A stretch of DNA of 64,000 bases from Minisyncoccota bacterium (lineage in GTDB: Bacteria; Patescibacteriota; Minisyncoccia; Phycocordibacterales; PALSA-1337), in assembly GCA_041666915.1 (NCBI GenBank), contig JBAYFZ010000002.1:14771-78770 (forward strand), in the 5' to 3' direction. A program made the translations under genes and the position numbers. Within the stretch, counting starts at the first letter, position 1, and each line of letters begins with the position of its first letter. The notes under the pieces are model-generated. The model was not told the origin of the DNA and searched no databases. It saw nothing but the letters and a program-made list of their open reading frames with translations. Below, in pieces: positions 1-56,588 of the stretch.

Positions 1-1173
1 GTTACAACCCCTGCCCCCACCGTCTTACCTCCTTCACGAACGGCAAACCTCTGCTTGTCTTCTAGAGCGACTGGAGCAACGAGTTTGACTTTGAAAGTAA
101 TAGTATCTCCTGGCATAACCATCTCTACCTTCTCAGGAAGAGTTACTTCACCAGTGACGTCTGTTGTACGGATATAGAACTGAGGCTTGTATCCTGTGAA
201 GAATGGAGTGTGGCGACCACCTTCTTCTTTCTTCAAAACGTAAACTTCAGACTCAAATTCTGTATGAGGCTTGACTGAACCTGGCTTGGCCAAAACTTGT
301 CCACGAGAAACACCATCCTTGGCGGTTCCACGGAGAAGAAGACCTGCATTATCTCCTGCCATACCTTCTTTGAGAGATTTGTTGAACATTTCAATACCAG
401 TAATAACGGTCTTACTTGTATCTTTGAAACCAACAATCTCAACTTCTTCACCAACTTTGATCATTCCGCGCTCTATACGACCTGTAACCACAGTTCCACG
501 GCCTTCAATGGAGAAGATATCTTCAATTGGCATAAGGAAAGGCTTGTCTACTTCACGAACAGGAGTAGGAATATATGAATCCAAAGCGGCCATAAGTTCA
601 TCAATCTTTGTTGACCATGTAGCATCACCGTTCAAAGCGTTTGATGCAGAACCACGGATAACTGGAGTGTTTTTACCATCAAACTTATTTTTGGTGAGAA
701 GTTCACGCACTTCTTCTTCAACAAGGTCAATAAGATCTTGTTCTGGTACTAGGTCGCACTTGTTCAAGAATACAACGATCTTTGGAACACCAACTTGGTA
801 AGCCAAAAGAACGTGTTCACGTGTCTGTGGCATAACACCATCAGTAGCTGAAACAACGAGGATAGCACCGTCCATTTGAGCGGCACCTGTAATCATGTTC
901 TTGATAAAGTCGGCGTGTCCTGGACAGTCAATGTGAGCATAGTGACGAGTAGCTGACTCGTACTCAACGTGCGACAAAGAAATTGTAACTGTCTTTGTTG
1001 CATCACGAACTGTACCTCCCTTTGTAATATCTGCGTAAGCTTTGACGTTAGCTAGACCCTTTTTGGACTGAACTGCCAAAAGAGCGGCTGTCAAAGTAGA
1101 CTTGCCGTGGTCAATGTGGCCGATTGTACCGACATTGATGTGTGGCTTCGTACGATTGAATTCTGCTGCCATA
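1..1173 (-). CDS. tuf: elongation factor Tu; C-terminus cut by the window edge, N-terminal Met at 1171-1173
   Basis: Minus-strand translation gives [31 protein letters not shown]...[23 protein letters not shown], the classic EF-Tu G-domain. The two plus-strand ORFs 271..801 and 297..578 are antisense artefacts. Confidence 0.95.
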
Positions 1174-4183: not shown

Positions 4184-4966
4184 CTATATCATCCCAAGTA
4201 AAGTATCCTTCCAACCCTTCTTCTCTGGTGTACTCAAAAAGAACTCCGATGGACAAGTCGTTTTTGGATTGATTTCTCTATGACCAAAGATTCTATCTTT
4301 TGAGACATTAGAGTATTTCTTACGGATCAATCCTGCGATAGCTTCAAGCTCAATCTGGCTTGGTACACCATTTTCATGATCATCATCCAAACAAATAGCC
4401 GTACTTCTACAGTTGATATCCCAATTCCCCGCTTGCCAACCTATCTCATCATCATTCAACAACCTCTCGCACTTTCCATCTTTACGAACAATCCAATGAT
4501 ATGGCCAAAAAACTTGTAAACCATTTCTAAAATGTCCTGAATAAATAAAATTATCTTTTATTTCTTTGTTAGCATCATAAGTAGGACCTTTCCCTGCATA
4601 CTGTGGAGCATATAGACGAACAAGTTCTATAGCTGACAAACGTTCTTTGGTCAAACCAGGGAAAGAACTCGTATGATGAATAATTATAGTATCAATAGGT
4701 TTTCTTTCTTCATCAAAATTCTTACCTTCTTTACCCAAGGCCACATTTCCAAGTATCAACTGCTCCTCAAAGAAATCGTACACTCTTTCTTTTTGCTTTT
4801 CGTAAGCGGGACGATCCATATCATGTAAACGACTCAAATCCTTCAAGACTTGAGGAATCTCTTTATACCAGTGAGGATTCTTTATCTTTATTTTCCATTC
4901 AGAAATGTTGAAGGTGAACATAACTAAGATAAATAAGCATTTTCCCAACAACTGTAACATACCCAA
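4184..4966 (-). CDS. N-acetylmuramoyl-L-alanine amidase (Amidase_2/PGRP-like) with N-terminal signal anchor
   Basis: DTIIIHHTSS...GWQAGNWDINCRSTAICL...GHREINPKTTCP matches the amidase_2 zinc-amidase signature. Hydrophobic N-terminus. Confidence 0.75.
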   Translation of the reverse strand: MGMLQLLGKCLFILVMFTFNISEWKIKIKNPHWYKEIPQVLKDLSRLHDMDRPAYEKQKERVYDFFEEQLILGNVALGKEGKNFDEERKPIDTIIIHHTSSFPGLTKERLSAIELVRLYAPQYAGKGPTYDANKEIKDNFIYSGHFRNGLQVFWPYHWIVRKDGKCERLLNDDEIGWQAGNWDINCRSTAICLDDDHENGVPSQIELEAIAGLIRKKYSNVSKDRIFGHREINPKTTCPSEFFLSTPEKKGWKDTLLGMI

Positions 4967-5131
4967 CCAAATTTATCTTGGATTGTAACCGGAGTAAGAC
5001 CAAAATAATGCGCACCATACCAAGCCCCGTCACTTGATATTGTGACAAAAATCAAGCTGTGACATTCCACACAAAAAACGATTGCCCGTTGTTTCTGTGT
5101 AAGAATTATTGATTCTTGGATTGTATTCATA

Positions 5132-6842: not shown

Positions 6843-7892
6843 TTACAGCAATGATTTTATGGATTCAGCGTTTAAGGTGTAGGCTCGAACAAAAGAATCG
6901 TCCACATGAGCATATAAAATTCCTTCACCTAGTTTTGTCTCTACGAACTGACTAGCAAACGTAATAGTTACCGCTTCAGTATCTTGGATAAACGGCTCAG
7001 GGGAAACCCAATCAATTTTTCCATTTTCGTAATCATAAATAAATAACCCCACTGAGAACATTCCGTATTTTATTTTGTCGCCCATTTTTTGGTTAGCTTC
7101 TCGTCCGTTCATTATACCCAATAACTTTCCTTCACCGACATCAATAAAGTTCTTTGGCAACAAAGGTCCAGGTGAGGCGTGGCCACCAATCCAAGCAATA
7201 TTATGTTCTTTAGGATGAAATACTGTCTCTCCATACCTCCACAGTTTGCTCATATCTTCTGCAATAGCAACTTTAACAATAGAATAAGTTGTATCAGTCT
7301 GACGATCTCGAGATTCAATAAGGTTATACCTGAAACCTTTAGAGTTAAGCGGAGCTATAGAAACTTCCTTTGCACTTAATTGTACTGTGTCCATAAGTAC
7401 AGGCATTGTCATTTCTAGAGAATCTAAATCTTTTCCAACAGCATGCCCAAGATGTATCTTCATTTTTTCTCCTTCATCATTCATCTTTTTTGATGGCCCT
7501 ATTGGAATTGTGAAATACAGATGTATTAAACCAGTAGTTTCATCTATCCAAATATCTGGATCCTCCAATCCAATAAAATCCCAGTCTTTAGGAGTCAAAC
7601 TGTCTATAATTTCTTTTTCGTTTCTAATTATTATACGATCACCAATTTCAAAATACTCCAGCGAATTTCCTCGTATTGTATGTAATTCACTTCTATCAAT
7701 ATATCCTTTTACCGTTACATCTCCCTCTCTACTTGTAATACATCTAATTATCCCTTCCTTATATTGAACTCTTGGGTCAAGAGCAATCGCCATAACGTGC
7801 GTAAACTTTTTATCTGTATTTATTACTCTACCCTCATGCTGAACATATAATTTTGACATAGATTTATTACTATAATTCTTTTTAATATTCAT
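6843..7892 (-). CDS. hypothetical protein, possible beta-propeller glycosidase-like (GH43/GH130-like); function uncertain
   Basis: 349-aa uninterrupted ORF; GLEDPDIWID resembles the EDPR-type motif of five-bladed propeller glycosidases. Weak evidence. Confidence 0.3.
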   Translation of the reverse strand: MNIKKNYSNKSMSKLYVQHEGRVINTDKKFTHVMAIALDPRVQYKEGIIRCITSREGDVTVKGYIDRSELHTIRGNSLEYFEIGDRIIIRNEKEIIDSLTPKDWDFIGLEDPDIWIDETTGLIHLYFTIPIGPSKKMNDEGEKMKIHLGHAVGKDLDSLEMTMPVLMDTVQLSAKEVSIAPLNSKGFRYNLIESRDRQTDTTYSIVKVAIAEDMSKLWRYGETVFHPKEHNIAWIGGHASPGPLLPKNFIDVGEGKLLGIMNGREANQKMGDKIKYGMFSVGLFIYDYENGKIDWVSPEPFIQDTEAVTITFASQFVETKLGEGILYAHVDDSFVRAYTLNAESIKSLL

Positions 7893-8823: not shown

Positions 8824-9004
8824 GACAGTTGATTAATCTTGATAGTATTTATTAGATTTGATATGCTTCTATTAGAAGTATGCAATAATAACTTATGAGG
8901 CGCTTTGGTGTTCCCTTAGAATATCTAGGGCTTGAGCTAAAGATAACCACCTTGTGAGACGCTACTTCTAACAAAGAACCCGCTAAGGCGGATTTTTTGT
9001 TAGA

Positions 9005-9655
9005 TTATTCTTTAAAAAGTTCCCTGCCCTCATCAATAATATTCCTTTGTAAAATCTTAAAAAATTCTTCCCCAAAATATCCACCTTCTAAATATCTAGC
9101 CAATGCGCCGACAACCCAATCAGCAATTTGGACATTAGCCATAGAAATAGAATCGACCATTTCAATTTGTAAAACCACATCTTTAGAAAGACTCAATAAG
9201 AGATAAGCTCTGAGAGATTCTTTAAATTCAGACTCTGACATTCCACCTAATCTTCTTCGATCACAAAATATCCTAAATTCCTTATCATCTGTTGGTAAAT
9301 ATGAGGCAAGTAATTCACCAACAATATTTGTATACAAGAGACCACTTCGTAATTTATTCTTATGGATATAATCTTTAGGAATATTCTTATTAAACACATA
9401 AACAAATCGTATATGTATATCGAGTCTAGAGAGTTCCCTCAACATTTTTAAACGTAAATCATCAGAGATTCCCGTATTTGACCATTTTATTTCATTCAAA
9501 TCACGCATCTTTACAGGAAAATGACTTCTGCACCATGCACGAAATCTTTTTGCTGTAATTTTTGGTTCTTCAATTGAAACAGATGCTATTACAAAATAAT
9601 TTTTATTATCACGTTTTGTAAATTGACCACTTTCATCCAGAAAAATATAAACCAT
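9005..9655 (-). CDS. DUF3800-family protein
   Basis: 216 aa starting MVYIFLDESGQF, the IDESG hallmark of DUF3800. Confidence 0.6.
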   Translation of the reverse strand: MVYIFLDESGQFTKRDNKNYFVIASVSIEEPKITAKRFRAWCRSHFPVKMRDLNEIKWSNTGISDDLRLKMLRELSRLDIHIRFVYVFNKNIPKDYIHKNKLRSGLLYTNIVGELLASYLPTDDKEFRIFCDRRRLGGMSESEFKESLRAYLLLSLSKDVVLQIEMVDSISMANVQIADWVVGALARYLEGGYFGEEFFKILQRNIIDEGRELFKE

Positions 9656-9674: not shown

Positions 9675-10583
9675 CTATTCCCAATTCACAACCTTAACTG
9701 TCTTTCCGTCAGAAGTTATCTTAACCGTTCCCTTCTCTTTCAAATTGAACTTCTTATCATCTTTAATATAAGCCAGAGGATCTATAACCTCTTTCTTTGC
9801 CTTCGCCCTTAAAACCGTAGACTTATTTGTAACCTTGCGTGAATACACCAAGTACTCTGGCTTAATTTCATTTATCAATTGTGAATAGATATTTTCCGGC
9901 AAAGCACTATGTGAAACTACTAGAACATCTGCATCGCCCAAAGTAGAAGATGGTGAAAAAACTATAGCCCTTTGGGTTTTATTAGAGGCACTACCCAAGA
10001 AGGTAATATTTGTTGAACCAAAAGAGATATTAAATAAAACCTCTGGTGAACTTGTCTTAGAATAAGTAAAATCACTATCTTTGATTGGAAATATGGATTT
10101 TATAGAAACTTTTCCATCTAAAACAATATTATCATCTGCCAAAACTTTGTCTGTTTTTATATTTTCAATATTTAAAGTATCAATAAAAGTAGAATAAATC
10201 TGATCCGTAGAACTAGCCAGACCAACAGTCTCTAATGTAACAGCAGGTACGAAGGCTTGATTGACTTTGTAACGCTCCACCACATCTATGAGGCCCGAGA
10301 CATTTTTACCATCGGTATTGGTAGCCATGATCATATCTATATAATGCGAATAAAAAGGAATAATCTTAGTCAATTCTCTTATAATCTCAGAATTTGGACC
10401 ACCATCAATAAGTATCCTTTTATCTTCTGGAGTACGTATGAACATGGAGCGTCCATTACTTAGAGAAAAAATGTATATCTCTAAAATAGGTGGCCTACTA
10501 GATTCTTTCCAAACGTAACCACCTAGACCACTAGCCAAGGCAGTAGAAGCTACAGCTATAACCAAAGGTTTTGATATATTCAT
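9675..10583 (-). CDS. metallo-beta-lactamase-fold protein resembling the C-terminal domain of ComEC/Rec2; N-terminal signal/TM
   Basis: 302 aa; IYIFSLSNGRSMFIRTPEDKRILIDGG resembles the ComEC MBL-domain opening motif. The separately encoded comEC at 11557..13392 lacks this domain. Shares an upstream box with comEC and comM. Confidence 0.55.
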   Translation of the reverse strand: MNISKPLVIAVASTALASGLGGYVWKESSRPPILEIYIFSLSNGRSMFIRTPEDKRILIDGGPNSEIIRELTKIIPFYSHYIDMIMATNTDGKNVSGLIDVVERYKVNQAFVPAVTLETVGLASSTDQIYSTFIDTLNIENIKTDKVLADDNIVLDGKVSIKSIFPIKDSDFTYSKTSSPEVLFNISFGSTNITFLGSASNKTQRAIVFSPSSTLGDADVLVVSHSALPENIYSQLINEIKPEYLVYSRKVTNKSTVLRAKAKKEVIDPLAYIKDDKKFNLKEKGTVKITSDGKTVKVVNWE

Positions 10584-10585
10584 AC

Positions 10586-10650
10586 CGTAATCATATAGAT
10601 ACGAGTTAAAATCCTGATTAAGAAAGGTTAAAGAAATGATGAAGATTTTT
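10586..10650 (-). promoter_or_regulatory. conserved upstream box (copy 1 of 3) preceding the MBL/ComEC-C gene
   Basis: Minus strand reads cttcatcatttctttaacctttcttaatcaggattttaactcgtatctatatgattacgg, then ATG. Near-identical to the box upstream of comM at 55012..55064 and similar to the one upstream of comEC at 13393..13450. Confidence 0.6.
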
Positions 10651-10757
10651 TGATGATTTTAACTAGGTATTACCTCATTAAAATCATTTACCGTAAACAA
10701 AAAAGGTCTTTTGGCGTATAATCAAGGTCTATTCTCAATAATAAATCTCAAAATAAT

Positions 10758-11372
10758 ATGAAACAATTCACCCTAAAAACATTCACCATTCCGGCTCTAA
10801 AAGGAATTTCTGCAAAAAATATTGAGGAGCATTTGAAGCTATACGCTGGCTATGTCAAAAACACCAATCTGATCCTTACGAAGATTGAGGAACTAAAAAA
10901 AGATACTGACTCATCAACCCCCTCAGGACAAGGTAATGCATATATCGTCGGAGAGATAAACAGACGTTTCGGTTTTGAATACAATGGTATGCGCAATCAT
11001 GAAATATATTTTTCTTCATTAGAAGGCGCAACCCCTCTTAGCGATAAAAGTTCCCTCAAAAAAACGATTTCTGAGACTTGGGGATCCTTTGATGCTTGGC
11101 TGGCAGAATTCAAACTTATTGGACTTACTCGTGGCATTGGTTGGGCTATTCTATATTATGATAATAAAGATGGTCGTCTCCTCAATGCTTGGATTGACGA
11201 ACAACATTTGGGACAACTTCAAGGTTGCTCCCCTATTCTCGCTATGGATATGTGGGAACATTCCTATGTAGCCGATTACCAGCCTTCTGGAAAGAAAAAC
11301 TATATTGAAGACTTTTTTGCAAATTTAAATTGGGAGGTTATTGAAGGAAATTTCAAAAAAGCGGTTAGGTAA
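10758..11372 (+). CDS. sod: Fe/Mn-family superoxide dismutase
   Basis: 204 aa; NHEIYF and DMWEHSYVADYQ match the NHxxYW and DxWEHAYY ligand motifs. The first ligand His is conserved (IEEH). Confidence 0.85.
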   Translation: MKQFTLKTFTIPALKGISAKNIEEHLKLYAGYVKNTNLILTKIEELKKDTDSSTPSGQGNAYIVGEINRRFGFEYNGMRNHEIYFSSLEGATPLSDKSSLKKTISETWGSFDAWLAEFKLIGLTRGIGWAILYYDNKDGRLLNAWIDEQHLGQLQGCSPILAMDMWEHSYVADYQPSGKKNYIEDFFANLNWEVIEGNFKKAVR

Positions 11373-11460
11373 TACAATTGCGAAATAAATCTATTATGTA
11401 AAGAAAAGGTGTGTTCAATTTCTTGACACCGCTCCTTATTTGGAATAAACTCCTACCAGT

Positions 11461-11557
11461 GAAATACTTTGAGATTTTTGAGATTCTCTAAGAGCGGAAA
11501 ATCCGGGTCGGCCGCCAGCGTTCGCTTCGGCGAATATGCAGTATGGAGGGATCGCTT
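11461..11557. other. GC-rich structured element immediately 3' of comEC, closed by a 10-bp inverted repeat; possible small ncRNA or complex terminator
   Basis: gagattctct ... agagaatctc encloses about 75 nt that is much more GC-rich than the surroundings and contains a gcttcggc UUCG-type hairpin. Confidence 0.3.
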
Positions 11558-13392
11558 CATGAAAATGAGGTGCCCGTCCTCCAGAGAATCTCAAAGTTCT
11601 TGAGGTATTTTTTATCGGTGACAAAAGAGGTGATAATGATTATCTCATCATTTACAGATTCAAAAACGATTACATGTGGTTCTCCTTCATTATCAGGAAA
11701 GAATTTAGTAATCAATAAACGATTATTCTTTCCCTTAAGAATAATATCTGGGTTCTTGAAAATTATCACCATCATTTCAAGTAAGTTTTTACCTTCCATA
11801 TCTTTCTCTGCAAGATGCTTAAAAGTCCTTCTAGAAAAATGTATCGATTTAAATTTTGTATTTAACAATTGAGATACAACAACCGTATTAAAATTAGTCA
11901 AAATCTTATCATCAGGATTATCAATCAAAACATTTTTTGGTAACTTCTGAAATTCTTTAAACAACAAAAGTAATGTATTTGAATCTGATCTTGATCTAAA
12001 AAGTTTAAAGCGGGTAAAAATCTTTCTTCTTAAGTAAACCCCCGCAAACACCACATAAAATCCAACGACCCACCAAAAGGAAAATGCTTCAACTTGTAAT
12101 GAAGCAAACGGGAATCTGGCGAAATTGTTGACCATAAAAAGTTCATAGGAAAGCAAGAGATGACTTGCCCAACCAAAAACTTGAGCCAGTGGTAACCAAA
12201 ACATTCCTACAATCCCAGTAATAAAAACAAAAAGCATGGTTACAGGAATAAAAGGTAGAACCAAAATATTGACCAACATTCCAATTATTGAAATCTGTCC
12301 CATCATATACAAGATGTAAGGTGAAACAAATATTTGTGTAGCTATAGTTGAAGCAACAATACCTCGTATACCAAATCTCTCCGTAATAAATGTCAGGCGC
12401 TTTTCTATTGGACCAGCAAGAATGATAAGTCCTAGAGTTGCCAAAAATGAAAGCTGGAAAGAAGGGTCATGCAAAAGTATCATCGGATTTTGAACGAGCA
12501 TGAGAAGACCAGCAAACATGAGCGCATGAATAACACTATAATCACGTCGGATAATGTCAGCGAAAAGAGCAATACTCGCCATCAGACAAGAACGAACAAC
12601 CGTGGCACCACCGCCAACCAAAATTCCAAACAAAGCGATACCAATACCACCAACTGATATTCCCCAAACTCTAGGCAAAAATGAAAGTAGGCGACGCATA
12701 GCGTCTGCAACAATAGTGATGTTGTATCCAGAAAGTACAACGATATGTATAAGTCCAACTTTTCTAAAATCATCTAACAGATCATTCCCCAGAGCAGACT
12801 TCTCCCCCACCACCAGACCAGATGCCAGAGCAGAGTGTGGTTCCCCTAAAGTTTTCTTCAAATTATTTACGAAATTTCTTTTCAGAGAAAATAATTGTGA
12901 AGAGAGTTTAGAAAAAAATGATTGAATTCCAAACCAAGATGAATTATTTTGTTGAACAATTTTCGTCAATGAAACAACCGCACTTTTCATCTCAAAATAA
13001 ATATCATCTTTTGCCAGATAATTTTTGTAATCAAAGATGCGACCCGAACCACTGTCAAAATTTGTCGGCTGTAATAATTTTCCTTTGAAAGAAACTTTAT
13101 CTCCAAAAGAAAATCGTGGATAAAGTTTGGTTTTCAAGCGAATGAGAAATTCTGTATTACAATATTTTGACGTACTCACTACCGAAAGATCCAAAACTGA
13201 GACAACAAAGACTTGTCCGTTTTCTTTTCGTTCTGGTTCATTCTCAATAATCCCAACTCCTTGAACATTCTGTTTCACACAATCACCTATATCTGGTGGC
13301 TCTATACCAAAAGATTGCCAGATACGAAAAATGGCAGTAGCTATGAATATACTCCAAAAAATAAAAACACCTCTCTTCATGAGAAGCATCAT
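11557..13392 (-). CDS. comEC: competence protein ComEC/Rec2 (DUF4131 plus Competence domain, no MBL domain) with an uncharacterised ~150-aa C-terminal extension
   Basis: 611 aa; N-terminal OB-like region, polytopic membrane core with GLIHIVVLSGYNITIV. The C-terminal MBL domain is missing and appears to be encoded separately at 9675..10583. Confidence 0.8.
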   Translation of the reverse strand: MMLLMKRGVFIFWSIFIATAIFRIWQSFGIEPPDIGDCVKQNVQGVGIIENEPERKENGQVFVVSVLDLSVVSTSKYCNTEFLIRLKTKLYPRFSFGDKVSFKGKLLQPTNFDSGSGRIFDYKNYLAKDDIYFEMKSAVVSLTKIVQQNNSSWFGIQSFFSKLSSQLFSLKRNFVNNLKKTLGEPHSALASGLVVGEKSALGNDLLDDFRKVGLIHIVVLSGYNITIVADAMRRLLSFLPRVWGISVGGIGIALFGILVGGGATVVRSCLMASIALFADIIRRDYSVIHALMFAGLLMLVQNPMILLHDPSFQLSFLATLGLIILAGPIEKRLTFITERFGIRGIVASTIATQIFVSPYILYMMGQISIIGMLVNILVLPFIPVTMLFVFITGIVGMFWLPLAQVFGWASHLLLSYELFMVNNFARFPFASLQVEAFSFWWVVGFYVVFAGVYLRRKIFTRFKLFRSRSDSNTLLLLFKEFQKLPKNVLIDNPDDKILTNFNTVVVSQLLNTKFKSIHFSRRTFKHLAEKDMEGKNLLEMMVIIFKNPDIILKGKNNRLLITKFFPDNEGEPHVIVFESVNDEIIIITSFVTDKKYLKNFEILWRTGTSFS

Positions 13393-13450
13393 ACAAGCGC
13401 GAGTTTAAATCCTGATTAAGAAAGGTTAAAAAAATGATGAAGAAAACTTA
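13393..13450 (-). promoter_or_regulatory. conserved upstream box (copy 2 of 3) preceding comEC
   Basis: Minus strand reads gttttcttcatcatttttttaacctttcttaatcaggatttaaactcgcgcttgtatgatg overlapping the ATG. Confidence 0.55.
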
Positions 13451-13470: not shown

Positions 13471-14196
13471 TCAAATCAAATACGCCTCATATTCTTCTAT
13501 TATTTTATTTTCATCTTCTACACTAATAGCTTTTTTATATCTTGCACCTCTTGCACCCTTTACTCTTTTTTCACATTCAGACCATGAACGATGAGTCTCT
13601 ATGACACCACCAACAGAACTTACATATGAATATGCTTTGGTTTTGGAATGAGATGATGAAGATTTCTTATCGTCTTTCTTCTCTTCATTATGTGAAACAT
13701 CCAAAATATTTTGTAAAGCATATTTAGAAAGAGGACCTTTGTATAACCTGATTTCTTGACCATCTGCAAAGGCAGTAGCTATCTCATCACATCTCTCGTT
13801 GCCGACAATACCGATATGACCACCGACATATTTCCAACTAACAGTTTTACTTTCTACTTGTAGAGAAAGTTTCATCCACAAATCTTTATTTGAAACATCC
13901 TCTTTTGTCTTTGTCTTCCAGCCATTTTTTTTCCAACCTTTTATCCATTTTGTAATGCCATTTATTACATAAGAAGAATCCGTATTGACAGTACAAGCTG
14001 AACCATCTGATGTATGAGAAAGCCCCTCTATTGTCGCCATCAACTCCATCTTATTATTTGTTGTAAATTTTTCACCACCACCAAGCTCTAAAACTTCTGA
14101 TTTATCAGAATCAAGTCTTGATACCACAACAGCACCCCAACCACCGGGACCAGGATTACCTCGCGAAGATCCATCTGTAAAAATTATATTTTCCAT
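13471..14196 (-). CDS. rnhA: ribonuclease HI with C-terminal hybrid-binding (Cauli_VI-like) domain
   Basis: 241 aa; IFTDGSSRGNPGPGGWGAV RNase H core. The C-terminus KAYSYVSSVGGVIETHRSWSECEKRVKGARGARYKKAISVEDENKIIEEY resembles the eukaryotic RNase H1 HBD, here at the C-terminus. Confidence 0.85.
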   Translation of the reverse strand: MENIIFTDGSSRGNPGPGGWGAVVVSRLDSDKSEVLELGGGEKFTTNNKMELMATIEGLSHTSDGSACTVNTDSSYVINGITKWIKGWKKNGWKTKTKEDVSNKDLWMKLSLQVESKTVSWKYVGGHIGIVGNERCDEIATAFADGQEIRLYKGPLSKYALQNILDVSHNEEKKDDKKSSSSHSKTKAYSYVSSVGGVIETHRSWSECEKRVKGARGARYKKAISVEDENKIIEEYEAYLI

Positions 14197-14219: not shown

Positions 14220-15986
14220 TTATTTGACAATGACATCTATTATCCTCAACCTCAATTCACTCCTTCCTCTGTACATAGATTTTTCCAAAGAAGCTACGAG
14301 ATCAATCGTTTTATTAGCTATAACTTTACTTGCCCAACTTTCTTTCGCCCCAAAAAATGATATGGCTGAGACTTTTTCTCCACTCTTTTTCTTGAATGAA
14401 AGCTCAACATGTTCTTTACCCTTTCCAAAAATTTTAACCTCAACAGGAACAACATCTCTAAAAAGAAAAACTGGTTTTGGATTACCGATACCAAACGGAG
14501 CTAACTTATTTATCTCATTATACAATCTAGAATCAATCATTTCTAAAGAAAGTTCCATATCTATAACTGAGTCAGATTTATTTTCAATACTATCAACCTC
14601 CAAATCAAAATCGCCAGTTTTTTTGATATTTTTATTTAGAGCTTTCTTCATATCACCAACCGCTTTGTTTAACCTTTGCTCCAAAAAGTGTACGTCATCA
14701 TTGGAAACAGCGAAACCGCCAGAATGGTGATGCCCACCAAATTGTAAAAATGTTTCTATTGGAGTAGCTCGCATAAGTTCTACTACATTGGTTTGCCCTT
14801 CAGAACGACAAGAGCCCTTTATGATATCGTCCCCATCTCTCCCCCAAAAGAAAGCTGGTCTATCAAATTCCTCTGCACAAGAGTTTGCAACCAAACCAAG
14901 GAGCGATGGTCGCCACAGAGGATTACCCAAAACTATTACGTCTGGCAAAGAATCTTGATATCTTTCATGTAAAATTTTCTTAACCTCTTTGACTAGAGAA
15001 GCGACGACCCCTTTTCTTTCATTATTTATCTTATCCAAATGATCTGCAAAAAAATGAGCATCTTCATCAGTGTCTGCAGAAAGAAGCTTGAAAGCGTCCA
15101 TAGGTTTCCCCATGCGTGAAGCCGCATTGATCCTAGGGGTGATCATAAAAGCAATATCATCTTCAGTTAGAAATCTTTGATTTATATTCAATTTACGCAA
15201 AAGTTGCATCAAGCCTTTCCTAGGACTCTTACGCAAAACTGCCAAACCAAAATGCGCAAAGATGCGATTTTCTCCAGTTAGACTGACCATATCTGAAAGT
15301 GTAGCAATACCGACCATATCCAATAACCATTTCTCGTGCCCTTCTTTCAAACCAAAACGATTCTTTTTTAGAATTGCTTGAATGAGTTTATAAGCAACAC
15401 CAGAACCGCATAGATTTTTATCAGGATAAGGACAATCTTTTTGTTTATGATCAACAATAGCAAAAGCTGGCGGTAAAGGAGTTGGTGGTTCATGATGATC
15501 TGTAATAATCACATCCATACCCAATTTTTTCGCACGAGTGACTGGCATAACATCAGTAACACCACAATCTACAGTTATGAGTAGCTTCACCCCTTCCCCA
15601 GCCAATTGTTCAACAGCTTCTACATTCAAACCAAAACCTTCATCATGACGATGTGGAATATATATAGAAAAATTACTGAAACCAATTCTTTTGAACAAAT
15701 CATTGAAAATGACAGATCCAGGGATACCGTCAGCATCATAATCGGCATATATAGCGATACGTTCATTATTATTTATTGCTTGAACGATACGATCGGCTGA
15801 TTTTTCGGCGTCTTTGAGAAGAAAAGGGTCATGAATATCTTTCTCATAATCTGGAGCCAGAAACTTTTCTGCGATTTTATTGTCCAAAATACCACGATGA
15901 AAGAGAAGGTGCGCAGTAATATCTGGCACACTATTCAATACAGCTCGCTCCTTATCATTTAATTGCCTACGGATATTGTATGACAC
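14220..15986 (-). CDS. recJ: single-stranded-DNA-specific exonuclease RecJ; 5' end uncertain (probably GTG/TTG near 15929-15986, not the 16133 codon in the ORF track)
   Basis: DHH motifs (DYDADGI, ITDHHEPP) and DHHA1 region. The long ORF to 16133 would overlap the plus-strand HIT gene start at 16035. Confidence 0.85.
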   Translation of the reverse strand: MSYNIRRQLNDKERAVLNSVPDITAHLLFHRGILDNKIAEKFLAPDYEKDIHDPFLLKDAEKSADRIVQAINNNERIAIYADYDADGIPGSVIFNDLFKRIGFSNFSIYIPHRHDEGFGLNVEAVEQLAGEGVKLLITVDCGVTDVMPVTRAKKLGMDVIITDHHEPPTPLPPAFAIVDHKQKDCPYPDKNLCGSGVAYKLIQAILKKNRFGLKEGHEKWLLDMVGIATLSDMVSLTGENRIFAHFGLAVLRKSPRKGLMQLLRKLNINQRFLTEDDIAFMITPRINAASRMGKPMDAFKLLSADTDEDAHFFADHLDKINNERKGVVASLVKEVKKILHERYQDSLPDVIVLGNPLWRPSLLGLVANSCAEEFDRPAFFWGRDGDDIIKGSCRSEGQTNVVELMRATPIETFLQFGGHHHSGGFAVSNDDVHFLEQRLNKAVGDMKKALNKNIKKTGDFDLEVDSIENKSDSVIDMELSLEMIDSRLYNEINKLAPFGIGNPKPVFLFRDVVPVEVKIFGKGKEHVELSFKKKSGEKVSAISFFGAKESWASKVIANKTIDLVASLEKSMYRGRSELRLRIIDVIVK

Positions 15987-16034
15987 AGAACGAGTATAAC
16001 ATGCGCAACCGCTTGCTTGTGGTAAAATAGAAAC

Positions 16035-16400
16035 ATGGATAATAACTGTATCTTTTGTAAAATTGTAAACAAAGAAATTCCTGCCAATATTGTCTATGAG
16101 GATAAAAACTTTTTGGCTTTTCTTGATATACATCCAAAATCACCTGGTCACACCCTAGTTATTCCAAAGAAACACTATAGATGGGTTTGGGACGTTCCAA
16201 ATCTTACAGAATATTTCAACGCAACAGGAAAAGTAGCCTTAGCTATTCGCAAAGCCTTTGGCCAAGAAATGATCCTTTCCAAGATTGTCGGTGAAGAGAT
16301 ACACCATGCACATATCTGGTTGTACCCATCAGATGCTACAAAAGGCGATAAAAACGATTTTACAGAAAATGCTATGAAAATTTCAAAATCTTTACTTTAA
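16035..16400 (+). CDS. HIT-family (histidine triad) protein
   Basis: 121 aa; [21 protein letters not shown] and the histidine triad [12 protein letters not shown]. Confidence 0.85.
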
Positions 16401-55004: not shown

Positions 55005-55011
55005 TTAATCA

Positions 55012-55064
55012 TTTCTTTAACCTTTCTTAATCAGGATTTTAACTCGTATCTGTATGATTATTAG
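55012..55064 (+). promoter_or_regulatory. conserved upstream box (copy 3 of 3) preceding comM
   Basis: atttctttaacctttcttaatcaggattttaactcgtatctgtatgattattag then ATG. One mismatch over about 50 nt to the box upstream of the MBL/ComEC-C gene. Confidence 0.6.
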
Positions 55065-56588
55065 ATGAGCTTAGCAAAAACATACAGCGCACAACTAATA
55101 GGACTCATGTCAGAAGTTGTGACAATAGAAGTAGACATTTCAAACGGTCTTCATTCATTTTCCGTAGTTGGACTCGGCGATAGGTCCGTAGAAGAATCAA
55201 AAGATCGTATATCTGCAGCTATAAAAAATAGCAACTTCAAATCTCCAAAGCAGAAAAACCAGAAAGTAGTCATATCACTAGCTCCAGCAGATATACACAA
55301 AGAAGGGCCTTCTTTTGATCTCGGCATGGCGATAGCTTATCTATCTGCATCAAAAGAGATAGATTTTTCTCCAGAAAATAAACTATTTTTAGGAGAATTA
55401 TCACTTGAAGGAAACTTGAGAAAAATCAGTGGTATATTACCGATTCTTTGCCAAGCAAAAGCCCAAGGTTTCACCGAAGCTTTCATTCCAAAAGACAATT
55501 CCGAAGAATCATCCTTGGCCCAAGGCATAACCACATATCCCGCCTCCACCTTAAATCAAATCATTGAACATCTTACTGGTATAAAAAATATAAAACCGAA
55601 TGAAACCATTTATTCAAATCCAGAAACATCTTCATCTTTTGGAACAAATATGAACAATGTTCGCGGTAACGAAACAGCCAAACGTGGTTTAGAAATAGCT
55701 GCAGCCGGTGCACACAATATCATCATGTGCGGTCCTCCAGGGACTGGCAAAACCATGCTTGCTCAATGTTTCACTTCAATATTACCGGATCTTTCGTACG
55801 AACAAGCAATAGAAGTCACTGGCATACACTCTACCGCTAGGACACTAGAACGAGGTTTGATATTCCGTCCACCATTTAGGTCGCCCCATCATACAGCCTC
55901 ATACCCATCTATTGTTGGTGGGGGAGGATTTCCAAAACCCGGCGAAATAACCTTAGCCCACAGAGGTGTATTATTTTTAGATGAATTTCCAGAATTTGAC
56001 CGCAGTGTCATAGAAGCTTTACGTCAACCATTGGAAGATAGGATGATAACCATTTCTAGAGCCAGAGGAGTAGTCACTTTCCCAGCACAATGTATCCTCA
56101 TTGCATCTATGAATCCTTGTCCTTGTGGAAAAGGTAGGCGCAATGGTTGTACCTGTACCCTAAAAGCCCTTGAAGCTTACAATAGAAAAATGTCCGGACC
56201 TATCATAGACCGACTAGATATATGGCTAAACGTTAGTAAAGTAGATTACAAACAACTTGGTGCCAAAGATTCGTCAGGAGAAAGTTCAGAAACTATAAAA
56301 GACCGAGTTATTGGAGCAAGAAAAATTCAAGAACAAAGATTTGCGTCCCACGGAATTCAAAAAGTCTTCAATGCCGAGATGAATGCTTTGGATATAGAAA
56401 AAATTGTTATTCTAGACGATGACGCTCGTATATTACTTACTTCATCAGCAGAAAAATTGGAACTTTCTGGTAGGGCTTTTCATAGGGTTATAAAGGTGGC
56501 ACAGACCATTGCTGATTTAGAAAAGAGCAGTTCAGTTAAAAAGCATCATATTTTGGAGGCACTGCAGTATAGGCAGAAAGTGGGGTGA
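55065..56588 (+). CDS. comM: Mg-chelatase-like AAA+ protein ComM/YifB
   Basis: 507 aa; N-terminal Lon-protease-like S5 fold, Walker A GPPGTGKTMLA, C-terminal ChlI-like. Confidence 0.9.
   Translation: MSLAKTYSAQLIGLMSEVVTIEVDISNGLHSFSVVGLGDRSVEESKDRISAAIKNSNFKSPKQKNQKVVISLAPADIHKEGPSFDLGMAIAYLSASKEIDFSPENKLFLGELSLEGNLRKISGILPILCQAKAQGFTEAFIPKDNSEESSLAQGITTYPASTLNQIIEHLTGIKNIKPNETIYSNPETSSSFGTNMNNVRGNETAKRGLEIAAAGAHNIIMCGPPGTGKTMLAQCFTSILPDLSYEQAIEVTGIHSTARTLERGLIFRPPFRSPHHTASYPSIVGGGGFPKPGEITLAHRGVLFLDEFPEFDRSVIEALRQPLEDRMITISRARGVVTFPAQCILIASMNPCPCGKGRRNGCTCTLKALEAYNRKMSGPIIDRLDIWLNVSKVDYKQLGAKDSSGESSETIKDRVIGARKIQEQRFASHGIQKVFNAEMNALDIEKIVILDDDARILLTSSAEKLELSGRAFHRVIKVAQTIADLEKSSSVKKHHILEALQYRQKVG

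Follow-up and report, generated by a model that had tools for sequence, protein, structure and literature searches.

A two-gene ComEC in a Candidatus Paceibacterota genome, with a predicted RNase gene and antisense RNA at the end of the channel gene

The DNA-uptake gene comEC and its surroundings were analyzed in a 64,000-nt stretch of contig JBAYFZ010000002.1 (hereafter, the window) from an uncultured Candidatus Paceibacterota bacterium, a member of the candidate phyla radiation (CPR/Patescibacteria). The modules of ComEC are distributed here over two genes on the same strand, one encoding the membrane channel and the other a metallo-beta-lactamase (MBL)-like domain, with a superoxide dismutase (SOD) gene between them on the opposite strand. 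The open reading frame (ORF) of the channel continues into a predicted RNase gene, the 3' end of which is overlapped by a predicted antisense RNA. The features are, in window coordinates and with the basis of each assignment in brackets:

12031..13392, minus strand: channel part of comEC, residues 1-454 (Pfam, NCBIfam, alignment to solved ComEC, hydropathy)
11971..12030, minus strand: in-frame linker between comEC and the RNase gene, residues 455-474 (junction compared in three frames)
11557..11970, minus strand: PBECR2-family domain, residues 475-611 plus stop codon (Pfam, homologues, invariant residues)
11458..11613, plus strand: predicted structured RNA of ~155 nt, with putative ends (fold, covariance model, covariation)
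11423..11451, plus strand: putative sigma-70-like promoter of the antisense RNA, TTGACA-17-TAAACT (promoter scan, 10/12 matches)
10758..11372, plus strand: Fe/Mn SOD gene, convergent with comEC (Pfam and NCBIfam SOD models)
9675..10583, minus strand: gene of the detached ComEC beta-lactamase-like domain, 302 aa (profile, AlphaFold2 model, Foldseek)

The channel gene and the detached domain

The comEC ORF (11557..13392, minus strand) is 611 aa long and had been described in an initial annotation as carrying the DUF4131 and Competence regions and no C-terminal MBL domain, a description with which the Pfam and NCBIfam scans agree. DUF4131 (PF13567) spans residues 9-137 (37.3 bits vs. a cut-off of 31.6, E=2.7e-9), Competence (PF03772) residues 193-454 (E=1.7e-50), and no lactamase domain was matched in the ORF by the Pfam scan. 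The NCBIfam models ComEC_N-term and ComEC_Rec2 reach only residue ~440, and the full-length ComEC equivalog TIGR00361 scores 76 bits vs. a cut-off of 190, only positions 83-400 of its 663 being matched. The N-terminus consists of two transmembrane (TM) helices and an oligonucleotide-binding (OB) fold, corresponding to DUF4131, and is followed by the Competence channel domain. Residues 179-448 align to residues 217-484 of the solved Moorella glycerini ComEC 30bt (801 aa), and the core aligns as well to the solved ComEC structures 9vc6, 9vcb and 9vcf. By hydropathy, the final TM helix of the channel part is found at residues 436-454, followed by the basic stretch RRKIFTRFKLFRSRS. The NCBI record of the product (MFA6554385.1, ComEC/Rec2 family protein) starts at Met5 and is 607 aa long; records of the 611-aa ORF exist in JGI/IMG, ENA and Logan. 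Apart from an appended RNase domain, comEC of the window encodes the OB fold and the membrane channel only.

The 302-aa ORF, which carries FIRTPEDKRILIDGG, had been proposed to encode a stand-alone ComEC-type MBL protein located ~1 kb away on the same strand, and remote comparisons bear this out. The protein (MFA6554383.1) is labelled as hypothetical at NCBI, and matches no Pfam or NCBIfam model. It has 137 homologues, all stand-alone and 232-367 aa long; those with a named source come from Paceibacterota, Patescibacteria group, Taylorbacteria, Parcubacteria or Minisyncoccia. A profile built from 27 members of the family matches residues 531-746 of ComEC 30bt (E=9.7e-14) and the isolated nuclease domain of M. 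glycerini ComEC, 9ic4 (E=1.1e-12). The AlphaFold2 (AF2) model of the protein (pLDDT 89.2, pTM 0.85) features an N-terminal helix at residues 5-28, then an MBL sandwich, and the top Foldseek match of the model is again 9ic4 (E=7.3e-18, TM 0.72/0.81), Pce, RNase J and true lactamases ranking well behind. The helix matches in position the TM helix preceding the MBL domain in full-length ComEC. Since the best matches in both sequence and fold are to the ComEC nuclease domain, the protein does not belong to an unrelated MBL family, RNase-J-like or true beta-lactamase, and is predicted to be a membrane-anchored ComEC-type beta-lactamase-like domain.

Residues H598, D602 (the general base), H603, D700 and H725 of M. 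glycerini ComEC are required for Mn2+-dependent nuclease activity and for transformation, and D600 and S728 contribute (9ic4 study, Nucleic Acids Research 2025, PMC12455585). In the hidden Markov model (HMM) alignment, H598/D600/D602/H603/H667/D700/H725/S728 correspond to N89/D91/K93/N94/F165/S198/H225/L228 of the 302-aa protein. Among 27 relatives, the D602 position is occupied by K (21), R (2) or N (4), and the H667 position by F in all; the H-x-[HD]-x-D-H motif is found in 0 of 120 family members. Motifs located elsewhere (TPxDxRxLxxGG, PFYS and FP...FxYSK) are invariant in the family, which argues for a retained, non-catalytic role. Because residues shown to be necessary for the ComEC nuclease are replaced, and the motif is missing throughout, the detached domain looks like a conserved pseudo-nuclease, devoid of most metal-binding and general-base residues, which probably acts as a structural subunit.

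Gene order was monitored in ten related loci with a split comEC (L002, L004, L014, L018, L020, L023, L025, L027, L031 and L032), in which relatives of the 302-aa protein are 40-50% identical. The order recJ - rnhA - comEC - gap - MBL-like gene - rpmB (on the opposite strand) - M50 peptidase gene was found in 10 out of 10. The comEC genes of the relatives encode 450-479 aa, with DUF4131 and Competence only, and lie upstream of the MBL-like gene on the same strand. The split had been flagged as worth looking for in related genomes, and it is an old, lineage-wide architecture shared by distantly related Paceibacteria, not a peculiarity of this genome. In the window, the SOD gene noticed earlier on the plus strand between the two comEC pieces is confirmed by the Pfam and NCBIfam models (Sod_Fe_C, E=3.5e-23; Sod_Fe_N, 23.3 bits, below the cut-off of 27), and its product features the DMWEHSY motif. 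SOD fills the same gap in L002, L004, L014, L020, L023, L025, L027 and L031, is missing in L018, is replaced by a pyrophosphatase gene in L032, and is accompanied by an extra NADAR gene in L023. As gap content varies, SOD is a frequent passenger and not the essence of the arrangement; of the earlier description of a ComEC in two genes separated by SOD, the split and the SOD position hold, but SOD is a variable element and the split extends to the whole lineage.

As to recJ and rnhA, both sit directly upstream of comEC, on the same strand, in all related loci extending far enough (L002, L012, L014, L018, L023, L025, L027, L031 and L032).

CPR ComEC proteins without an MBL fusion have already been published (Meheust et al. 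2019, PMC6744442), and ComECs made up by DUF4131 and Competence are common, being listed as the 'DC' domain profile by Pimentel & Zhang 2018 (PMC6299819). A detached MBL gene of ComEC is described in none of the papers searched, an absence which is not proof. In ComEC, both the MBL domain and the OB fold are extracellular (PMC12455585). Since these two modules lie outside, the comEC core ends at residue 484 of 30bt, the MBL-like profile begins at residue 531, the channel part ends in a TM helix followed by a basic stretch, and the 302-aa protein begins with a helix of its own, the break point would correspond to the short loop that connects, on the cytoplasmic side, the final two TM helices of full-length ComEC.

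The two genes are also linked by a common upstream sequence. The 40-nt pattern CATCATTTNTTTAACCTTTCTTAATCAGGATTTWAACTCG occurs with 0 mismatches before comEC and before the MBL-like gene, where a shared box had been noted, and a third copy, with 1 mismatch, precedes a comM/yifB-type gene:

13400..13439, minus strand: upstream box, comEC copy (pattern scan)
10602..10641, minus strand: upstream box, copy of the MBL-like gene (pattern scan)
55007..55046, plus strand: upstream box, third copy, 19 nt upstream of comM (pattern scan)
55065..56588, plus strand: comM/yifB-type gene, ChlI + Mg_chelatase + Mg_chelatase_C (Pfam)
13471..14196, minus strand: rnhA, between recJ and comEC (Pfam)
14220..16133, minus strand: recJ, upstream of rnhA (Pfam)

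The chance expectation for copies of the box is 0.00. The region shared by comEC, the MBL-like gene and comM measures ~40-57 nt, and is made up by 3-4 direct repeats of TTTCTTWAWC, spaced by ~11 nt and running into a TATGAT located 6-7 nt before the ATG, which in comEC is the Met5 start used by NCBI. Such a layout points to leaderless transcription under one regulator. In L002, L023 and L025, the regions upstream of comEC and of the MBL-like gene have in common a box version of their own. The third copy before comM argues for a competence regulon; the box would be its operator/promoter, and comEC, the MBL-like gene and comM its members. The box that the MBL-like gene shares with comEC and comM is a separate line of evidence that the detached domain remains part of the DNA-uptake machinery.

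The RNase-type gene and the antisense RNA

The C-terminal extension of ~150 aa, reported earlier as an uncharacterised part of comEC, is real (residues 455-611, ~157 aa), but it is predicted to be a separate gene, of the PBECR2 RNase type, fused in frame, and not a part of ComEC. The extension matches PBECR2 (PF18810) at 26.6-26.9 bits vs. a cut-off of 27.1 (E ~6e-6); PBECR2 is matched by 28 of 37 close relatives (best E=7.4e-9), and larger relatives exceed the cut-off (28.9-34.1 bits). The closest homologues are stand-alone proteins of 124-132 aa; the domain is a protein of its own in most relatives, the stand-alone forms varying overall from 124 to 157 aa and having no signal peptide. Profile searches of two databases returned 47 relatives and 130 cluster representatives, respectively, some of them embedded in proteins of 640-6660 aa. 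No match to the domain was found in PHROGs or PADLOC, and a sequence search of the family against the Protein Data Bank (PDB) gave only noise, hence no solved relative. His52 (in RRTLKH), Thr114 and Thr118 (in ITSFVTD) are invariant in 37 sequences. PBECR2 is a phage nuclease of the BECR (Barnase-EndoU-ColicinE5/D-RelE) type, BECR-fold enzymes being metal-independent RNases, and the PBECR active site is assigned to a His within the N-terminal helix together with a C-terminal Thr/Ser in the passages of Iyer et al. 2017 (PMC5512222) devoted to these domains. The invariant His and Thr residues agree with such a site, if they fall on the corresponding secondary-structure elements. The predicted outcome of the fusion is a channel with a cytoplasmic RNase-type domain.

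The junction was compared in three frames in the window and in L002, L004, L031, L032, L012, L014 and L018. In L002, L004, L031 and L032 the RNase gene starts 4-25 nt before the comEC stop, in another frame; the relatives' counterpart of linker residues 455-474 is thus a comEC stop codon with an overlapping RNase start codon. The two genes are in frame in the window and in at least L005 (P0121), L012 and P0135, and a fused stub is found in L014. The RNase domain is absent or deleted in L014, L018, L023, L025 and L027, despite the same split ComEC. Conversely, the RNase module resides away from comEC in L029, L030 and L033.

In L029 (1787..5537) the RNase gene (P0146) stays open, in frame, across the entire RNA element described below, and is preceded by a large serine recombinase gene and by a 396-aa gene without a Pfam match, a setting which hints that the cassette is able to sit in mobile-element contexts. 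In L033 (4001..8560, on a contig of Logan SRR21686418) the PBECR2 domain makes up residues 183-319 of a 1519-aa protein within a phage-like region, next to a peptidase-domain (endolysin-like) gene and a tail-fibre gene.

The RNase relatives all end in a near-identical ..KYLKNFEILWRT. The corresponding DNA is 76% identical on average and almost invariant over ~130 nt, whereas the flanking proteins are 40-70% identical. This region coincides with a predicted RNA of ~155 nt, encoded on the plus strand (11458..11613) and running antisense to the RNase ORF over its final ~55 nt. The segment folds with a minimum free energy (MFE) of -66.9 kcal/mol (z=-6.1; RNAalifold was also run) into a long closing helix around three hairpins, one with a GAAA tetraloop, with a U-run at the 3' end. 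R1, a covariance model built from nine copies of the element, hits 11437..11615 of the window at 197 bits, and detects no second copy there. The element was found in 14 of 14 loci with an RNase ORF or a remnant of it (13 at 70-203 bits, L033 at 93 bits), and in none of the three split-comEC loci without the RNase gene that were searched with the covariance model (L023, L025 and L027).

In an alignment of 13 sequences, 94.9% of cells are paired, vs. 42-54% with slid partners, and compensatory changes occur at 19 pairs, vs. 3-7 for the slid controls; none of 500 shuffles attained the values observed. The RNA strand can be told apart by the 101 G-U vs. 9 A-C cells and by the pairing, 94.9% on the plus strand vs. 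81.6% on its complement; both features indicate that the RNA is antisense to the RNase ORF. A predicted promoter of the type TTGAC[ACTG]-16..18-TA[ACG]A[CA]T (9-11/12 matches) occupies the same offset, or one close to it, in 13 of 14 loci. Promoter and element are retained even inside the L033 ORF (element at 4914..5080, 93 bits), the closing helix being kept through several compensatory changes, and both are intact in L013, L014 and L018, where the RNase ORF is deleted or truncated. A conserved, highly structured antisense RNA, independently promoted as far as the predictions go, therefore appears to overlap the 3' end of the RNase ORF, and it matches no Rfam family.

At gathering scores, Rfam 15 matches nothing in the window except tRNAs and DUF3800-V, and only chance snoRNA matches were returned for 11300..11750 at E<=10. 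Known small RNAs (SRP RNA, 6S, tmRNA, RNase P RNA, riboswitches, ribozymes) were accordingly rejected as identities of the element. A group I or II intron, or an intein, splitting comEC was discarded as well, as no Rfam intron is matched, the structure is antisense, and the gap holds a gene on the opposite strand. A stretch of 13 nt in the element seems to be identical to a part of the 5' region of 16S rRNA (GAACGCTGGCGGC). An exact 20-mer scan of one-genome-per-species contigs yielded 15 stretches, 10 of which are chance hits in high-GC genomes and 5 real, and a pattern scan of metagenomes only 2 contigs. Nothing real was found by pattern and protein scans of viral and phage collections, the single pattern match (L034) failing the covariance model, or by tblastn and blastn against cultured phage records.

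Interpretation and alternatives

The locus is likely to be a split ComEC of the Paceibacteria type that picked up a selfish RNase/RNA module. The detached domain would still be located at the channel's outer face, guiding or holding DNA as a subunit without catalytic activity; cutting of the non-imported strand would be left to a different nuclease, or would not take place. Together, the RNase-type protein and the RNA would make up a toxin/RNA-antitoxin-like (immunity) pair that came from phages and arrived at the junction where comEC and SOD converge; the cassette, fused to the channel in this genome, would have settled at the comEC stop codon. Such a reading of the pair fits the convergent layout with overlapping 3' ends, the orphan RNAs and the embedding of the domain in polyvalent phage proteins. 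More speculatively, the recJ-rnhA-comEC order might mean that DNA import is linked to the degradation of single strands, imported ones being fed to RecJ, which would be consistent with the idea of nucleotide scavenging raised for CPR bacteria (PMC6744442).

Several observations weigh against this interpretation. The H725 equivalent is retained in 18 of 27 relatives, and an acidic residue is found at the D600 position in 21 of 27; missing canonical ligands are no strict proof that all activity is gone. For the window itself, PBECR2 scores just below the Pfam cut-off. The alignment used for pair counts had been fitted to the model, and 9 of its 13 sequences are near-identical, so that most covariation rests on L029-L032, L033 providing separate support. 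Finally, the RNase gene is found repeatedly at the comEC stop (11 loci), which could stem from a functional connection with DNA uptake and not from a selfish element.

A further-reaching proposal is tentative, and we put it below the interpretation given above: the PBECR2 domain and the ~155-nt antisense RNA would constitute a previously undescribed protein-toxin/RNA-immunity cassette, which at ComEC would work as a tethered RNase, checked by the RNA, guarding the entry of DNA. The RNA gene, with promoter, fold and terminator, is predicted to lie on the complement of the last codons of the domain, and the pair could thus be moved as a unit into any frame. Its settings range from giant phage polyvalent proteins to solo genes and to fusions with the cytoplasmic end of ComEC in Paceibacteria.

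It is rather improbable that the ~155-nt element is something other than an RNA gene, namely a coding tail reached by frameshifting, a bidirectional terminator, or a site acting at the DNA level in recombination or uptake, where it may function as single-stranded DNA. One sense frame of the element does read ..PPYCIFAEANAGGRPGFSALRESQ, like the residues following LLWRT in large PBECR2 proteins; the ORF runs straight through the element in L029 and L033; and the element is positioned between convergent genes, with a U-run at its end. At the comEC-linked loci, however, the tail peptide is found in different frames and is cut by stops. Programmed frameshifting into a conserved tail (..ANAGGRPEFSALRESQ) was rejected on these grounds: the frames differ, they follow stops, and the reading is broken in L005, L012 and L013 by a stop-bearing insertion of 12 nt which keeps the hairpin. 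Since the tail-like reading varies in frame and is interrupted, whereas the helices are kept, the constraint is on nucleotides, not on protein. The compensatory changes at 19 helix positions, the G-U excess favouring the antisense strand, and a -35/-10 pair kept in 13 of 14 loci, even inside the L033 ORF, all speak for an RNA gene, and a 155-nt fold of four helices, one GNRA loop included, goes far beyond what makes up a terminator.

There is little to recommend, on balance, the view that the PBECR2-like domain replaces the lost MBL nuclease, either degrading the non-transported strand while tethered to ComEC or processing incoming nucleic acid. A nuclease-fold domain is found exactly at the ComEC C-terminus, coupled by a 4-25 nt overlap or fused, in 11 loci, and the MBL domain is predicted to be catalytically dead. 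Yet the chemistry of BECR-fold enzymes needs a 2'-OH, so that DNA should not be cut. These enzymes are described as metal-independent RNases (PMC5512222). Strand degradation takes place on the outer face (PMC12455585), whereas the PBECR2 domain is predicted to be cytoplasmic, stand-alone forms having no signal peptide and the last TM helix being followed by a basic stretch. The same split ComEC is encoded in L014, L018, L023, L025 and L027 with the domain absent or deleted, and the domain and its RNA occur away from comEC in L029 and L030 and inside a phage-like gene in L033. Wrong chemistry, wrong side of the membrane and absence from many split-ComEC genomes make the RNase an unlikely substitute for the DNase.

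Equally doubtful is that the 611-aa ORF results from a frameshift or assembly artefact and represents two overlapping genes, as in L002 and L004. In these loci, and in L031 and L032, the genes lie in different frames with a 4-25 nt overlap, so that an error in one base would be enough to join them. A second contig (Logan SRR6484324) carries, however, an identical fused ORF, and the fused protein has an NCBI record, in its version of 607 aa. The two genes are in frame in L005/P0121, L012 and P0135 as well, and the remnant in L014 goes back to a fused form. Least credible of all is that the 302-aa gene encodes a mere neighbouring MBL-fold hydrolase with no role in DNA uptake: the lack of Pfam and NCBIfam matches and the NCBI label of hypothetical protein leave room for it, but the best sequence and fold matches are specifically to the ComEC MBL domain, the upstream box is shared with comEC and comM, synteny with comEC holds in 10 of 10 related loci, and the N-terminal helix stands where a TM helix precedes the MBL domain of ComEC.

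Comparison with known systems and other observations

The window holds the same three modules, in the same chromosomal order, as the canonical three-domain ComEC of M. glycerini and Bacillus subtilis (30bt, 9ic4; PMC12455585). The OB fold and the channel are recognisable, the MBL fold is ComEC-like, and a TM helix precedes the MBL domain. Unlike in the canonical protein, the modules are encoded by two genes with others in between, the metal and general-base residues are replaced, and an RNase domain is predicted at the cytoplasmic end of the channel. Channels with an inactive or missing MBL domain have precedents: Streptococcus pneumoniae ComEC has an inactive MBL domain, the strand being degraded by EndA, and Helicobacter pylori ComEC has none (PMC12455585, PMC5031224), strand degradation being accomplished elsewhere or left unexplained. 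The dead domain of S. pneumoniae is still fused, and that of H. pylori is gone, whereas in the window it is kept as a separate, conserved and, judging from the box, co-regulated gene; no partner of the EndA type was identified, no search aimed at one having been made.

The window comEC is exactly of the type of the CPR ComEC family without an MBL fusion, DUF4131 plus Competence (PMC6744442, PMC6299819). In the parts of these papers that deal with ComEC the MBL domain is treated as absent; here, a divergent ComEC-type MBL protein, invisible to Pfam, is encoded next door in every related locus examined. DNA uptake by CPR/Patescibacteria is believed to depend on ComEC, and reports describe their ComEC as devoid of the nuclease domain. 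The present data suggest that the domain is not simply missing here, but detached, catalytically disabled, conserved, and co-regulated with comEC and comM. A detached and dead domain points to a structural role of the MBL module separable from catalysis, and the split locus prompts one to ask whether, and by which enzyme, these organisms dispose of the second DNA strand. The upstream box offers a concrete way into competence regulation in an uncultured lineage.

The RNase-type domain shares HMM membership at the family level with the PBECR2 domains of phage polyvalent and solo phage proteins (PF18810; PMC5512222). As with these, relatives are found inside large multidomain proteins, and one in a phage-like, tail-gene context. 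Unlike phage PBECR2, the domain of the window is chromosomal, resides in a CPR genome, is coupled or fused to ComEC, and is always accompanied by the predicted antisense structured RNA; an antisense RNA is not described in the passages of PMC5512222 on PBECR.

Small RNAs also accompany toxins of other types. Type I toxin-antitoxin systems with convergent antisense RNAs overlapping at the 3' end include bsrG/SR4 and txpA/RatA of B. subtilis, and ToxIN is a type III system. As in type I systems, the 3' end of a toxin-type gene is overlapped here by a convergent small RNA with a predicted promoter of its own, and the RNA persists as an orphan where the toxin-type gene is deleted. Yet type I toxins are small hydrophobic membrane peptides, whereas the window protein is a soluble RNase-type domain of ~130 aa. 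Type III antitoxins are tandem repeats located upstream of the toxin gene and processed by the toxin; the window RNA is a single copy, free of repeats, with a complex conserved fold. In the putative RNase/antisense-RNA pair, a structured RNA that Rfam does not contain is tightly linked to a toxin domain of phage type, and the dual-coding layout is unusual. If the RNA were an immunity factor, it would explain how cells tolerate the toxic RNase domains of the polyvalent phage proteins that they make.

Further features were observed on the far side of the MBL-like gene. An ORF of 349 aa (6843..7892, minus strand), adjoining the M50 peptidase gene, has no Pfam match. Between the MBL-like gene and rpmB, a DUF3800 gene (9005..9655, minus strand), whose product also matches the candidate defence family PDC-M04A (PADLOC, E=1e-9), is convergent with a DUF3800-V RNA (Rfam RF02964, 76 bits; 8874..8969, plus strand), located 36 nt beyond the 3' end of the gene. 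As the relatives examined have nothing in this slot, the pair looks like an insertion. Its layout, a protein gene with a convergent RNA gene at the 3' end, parallels that of the RNase/RNA cassette.

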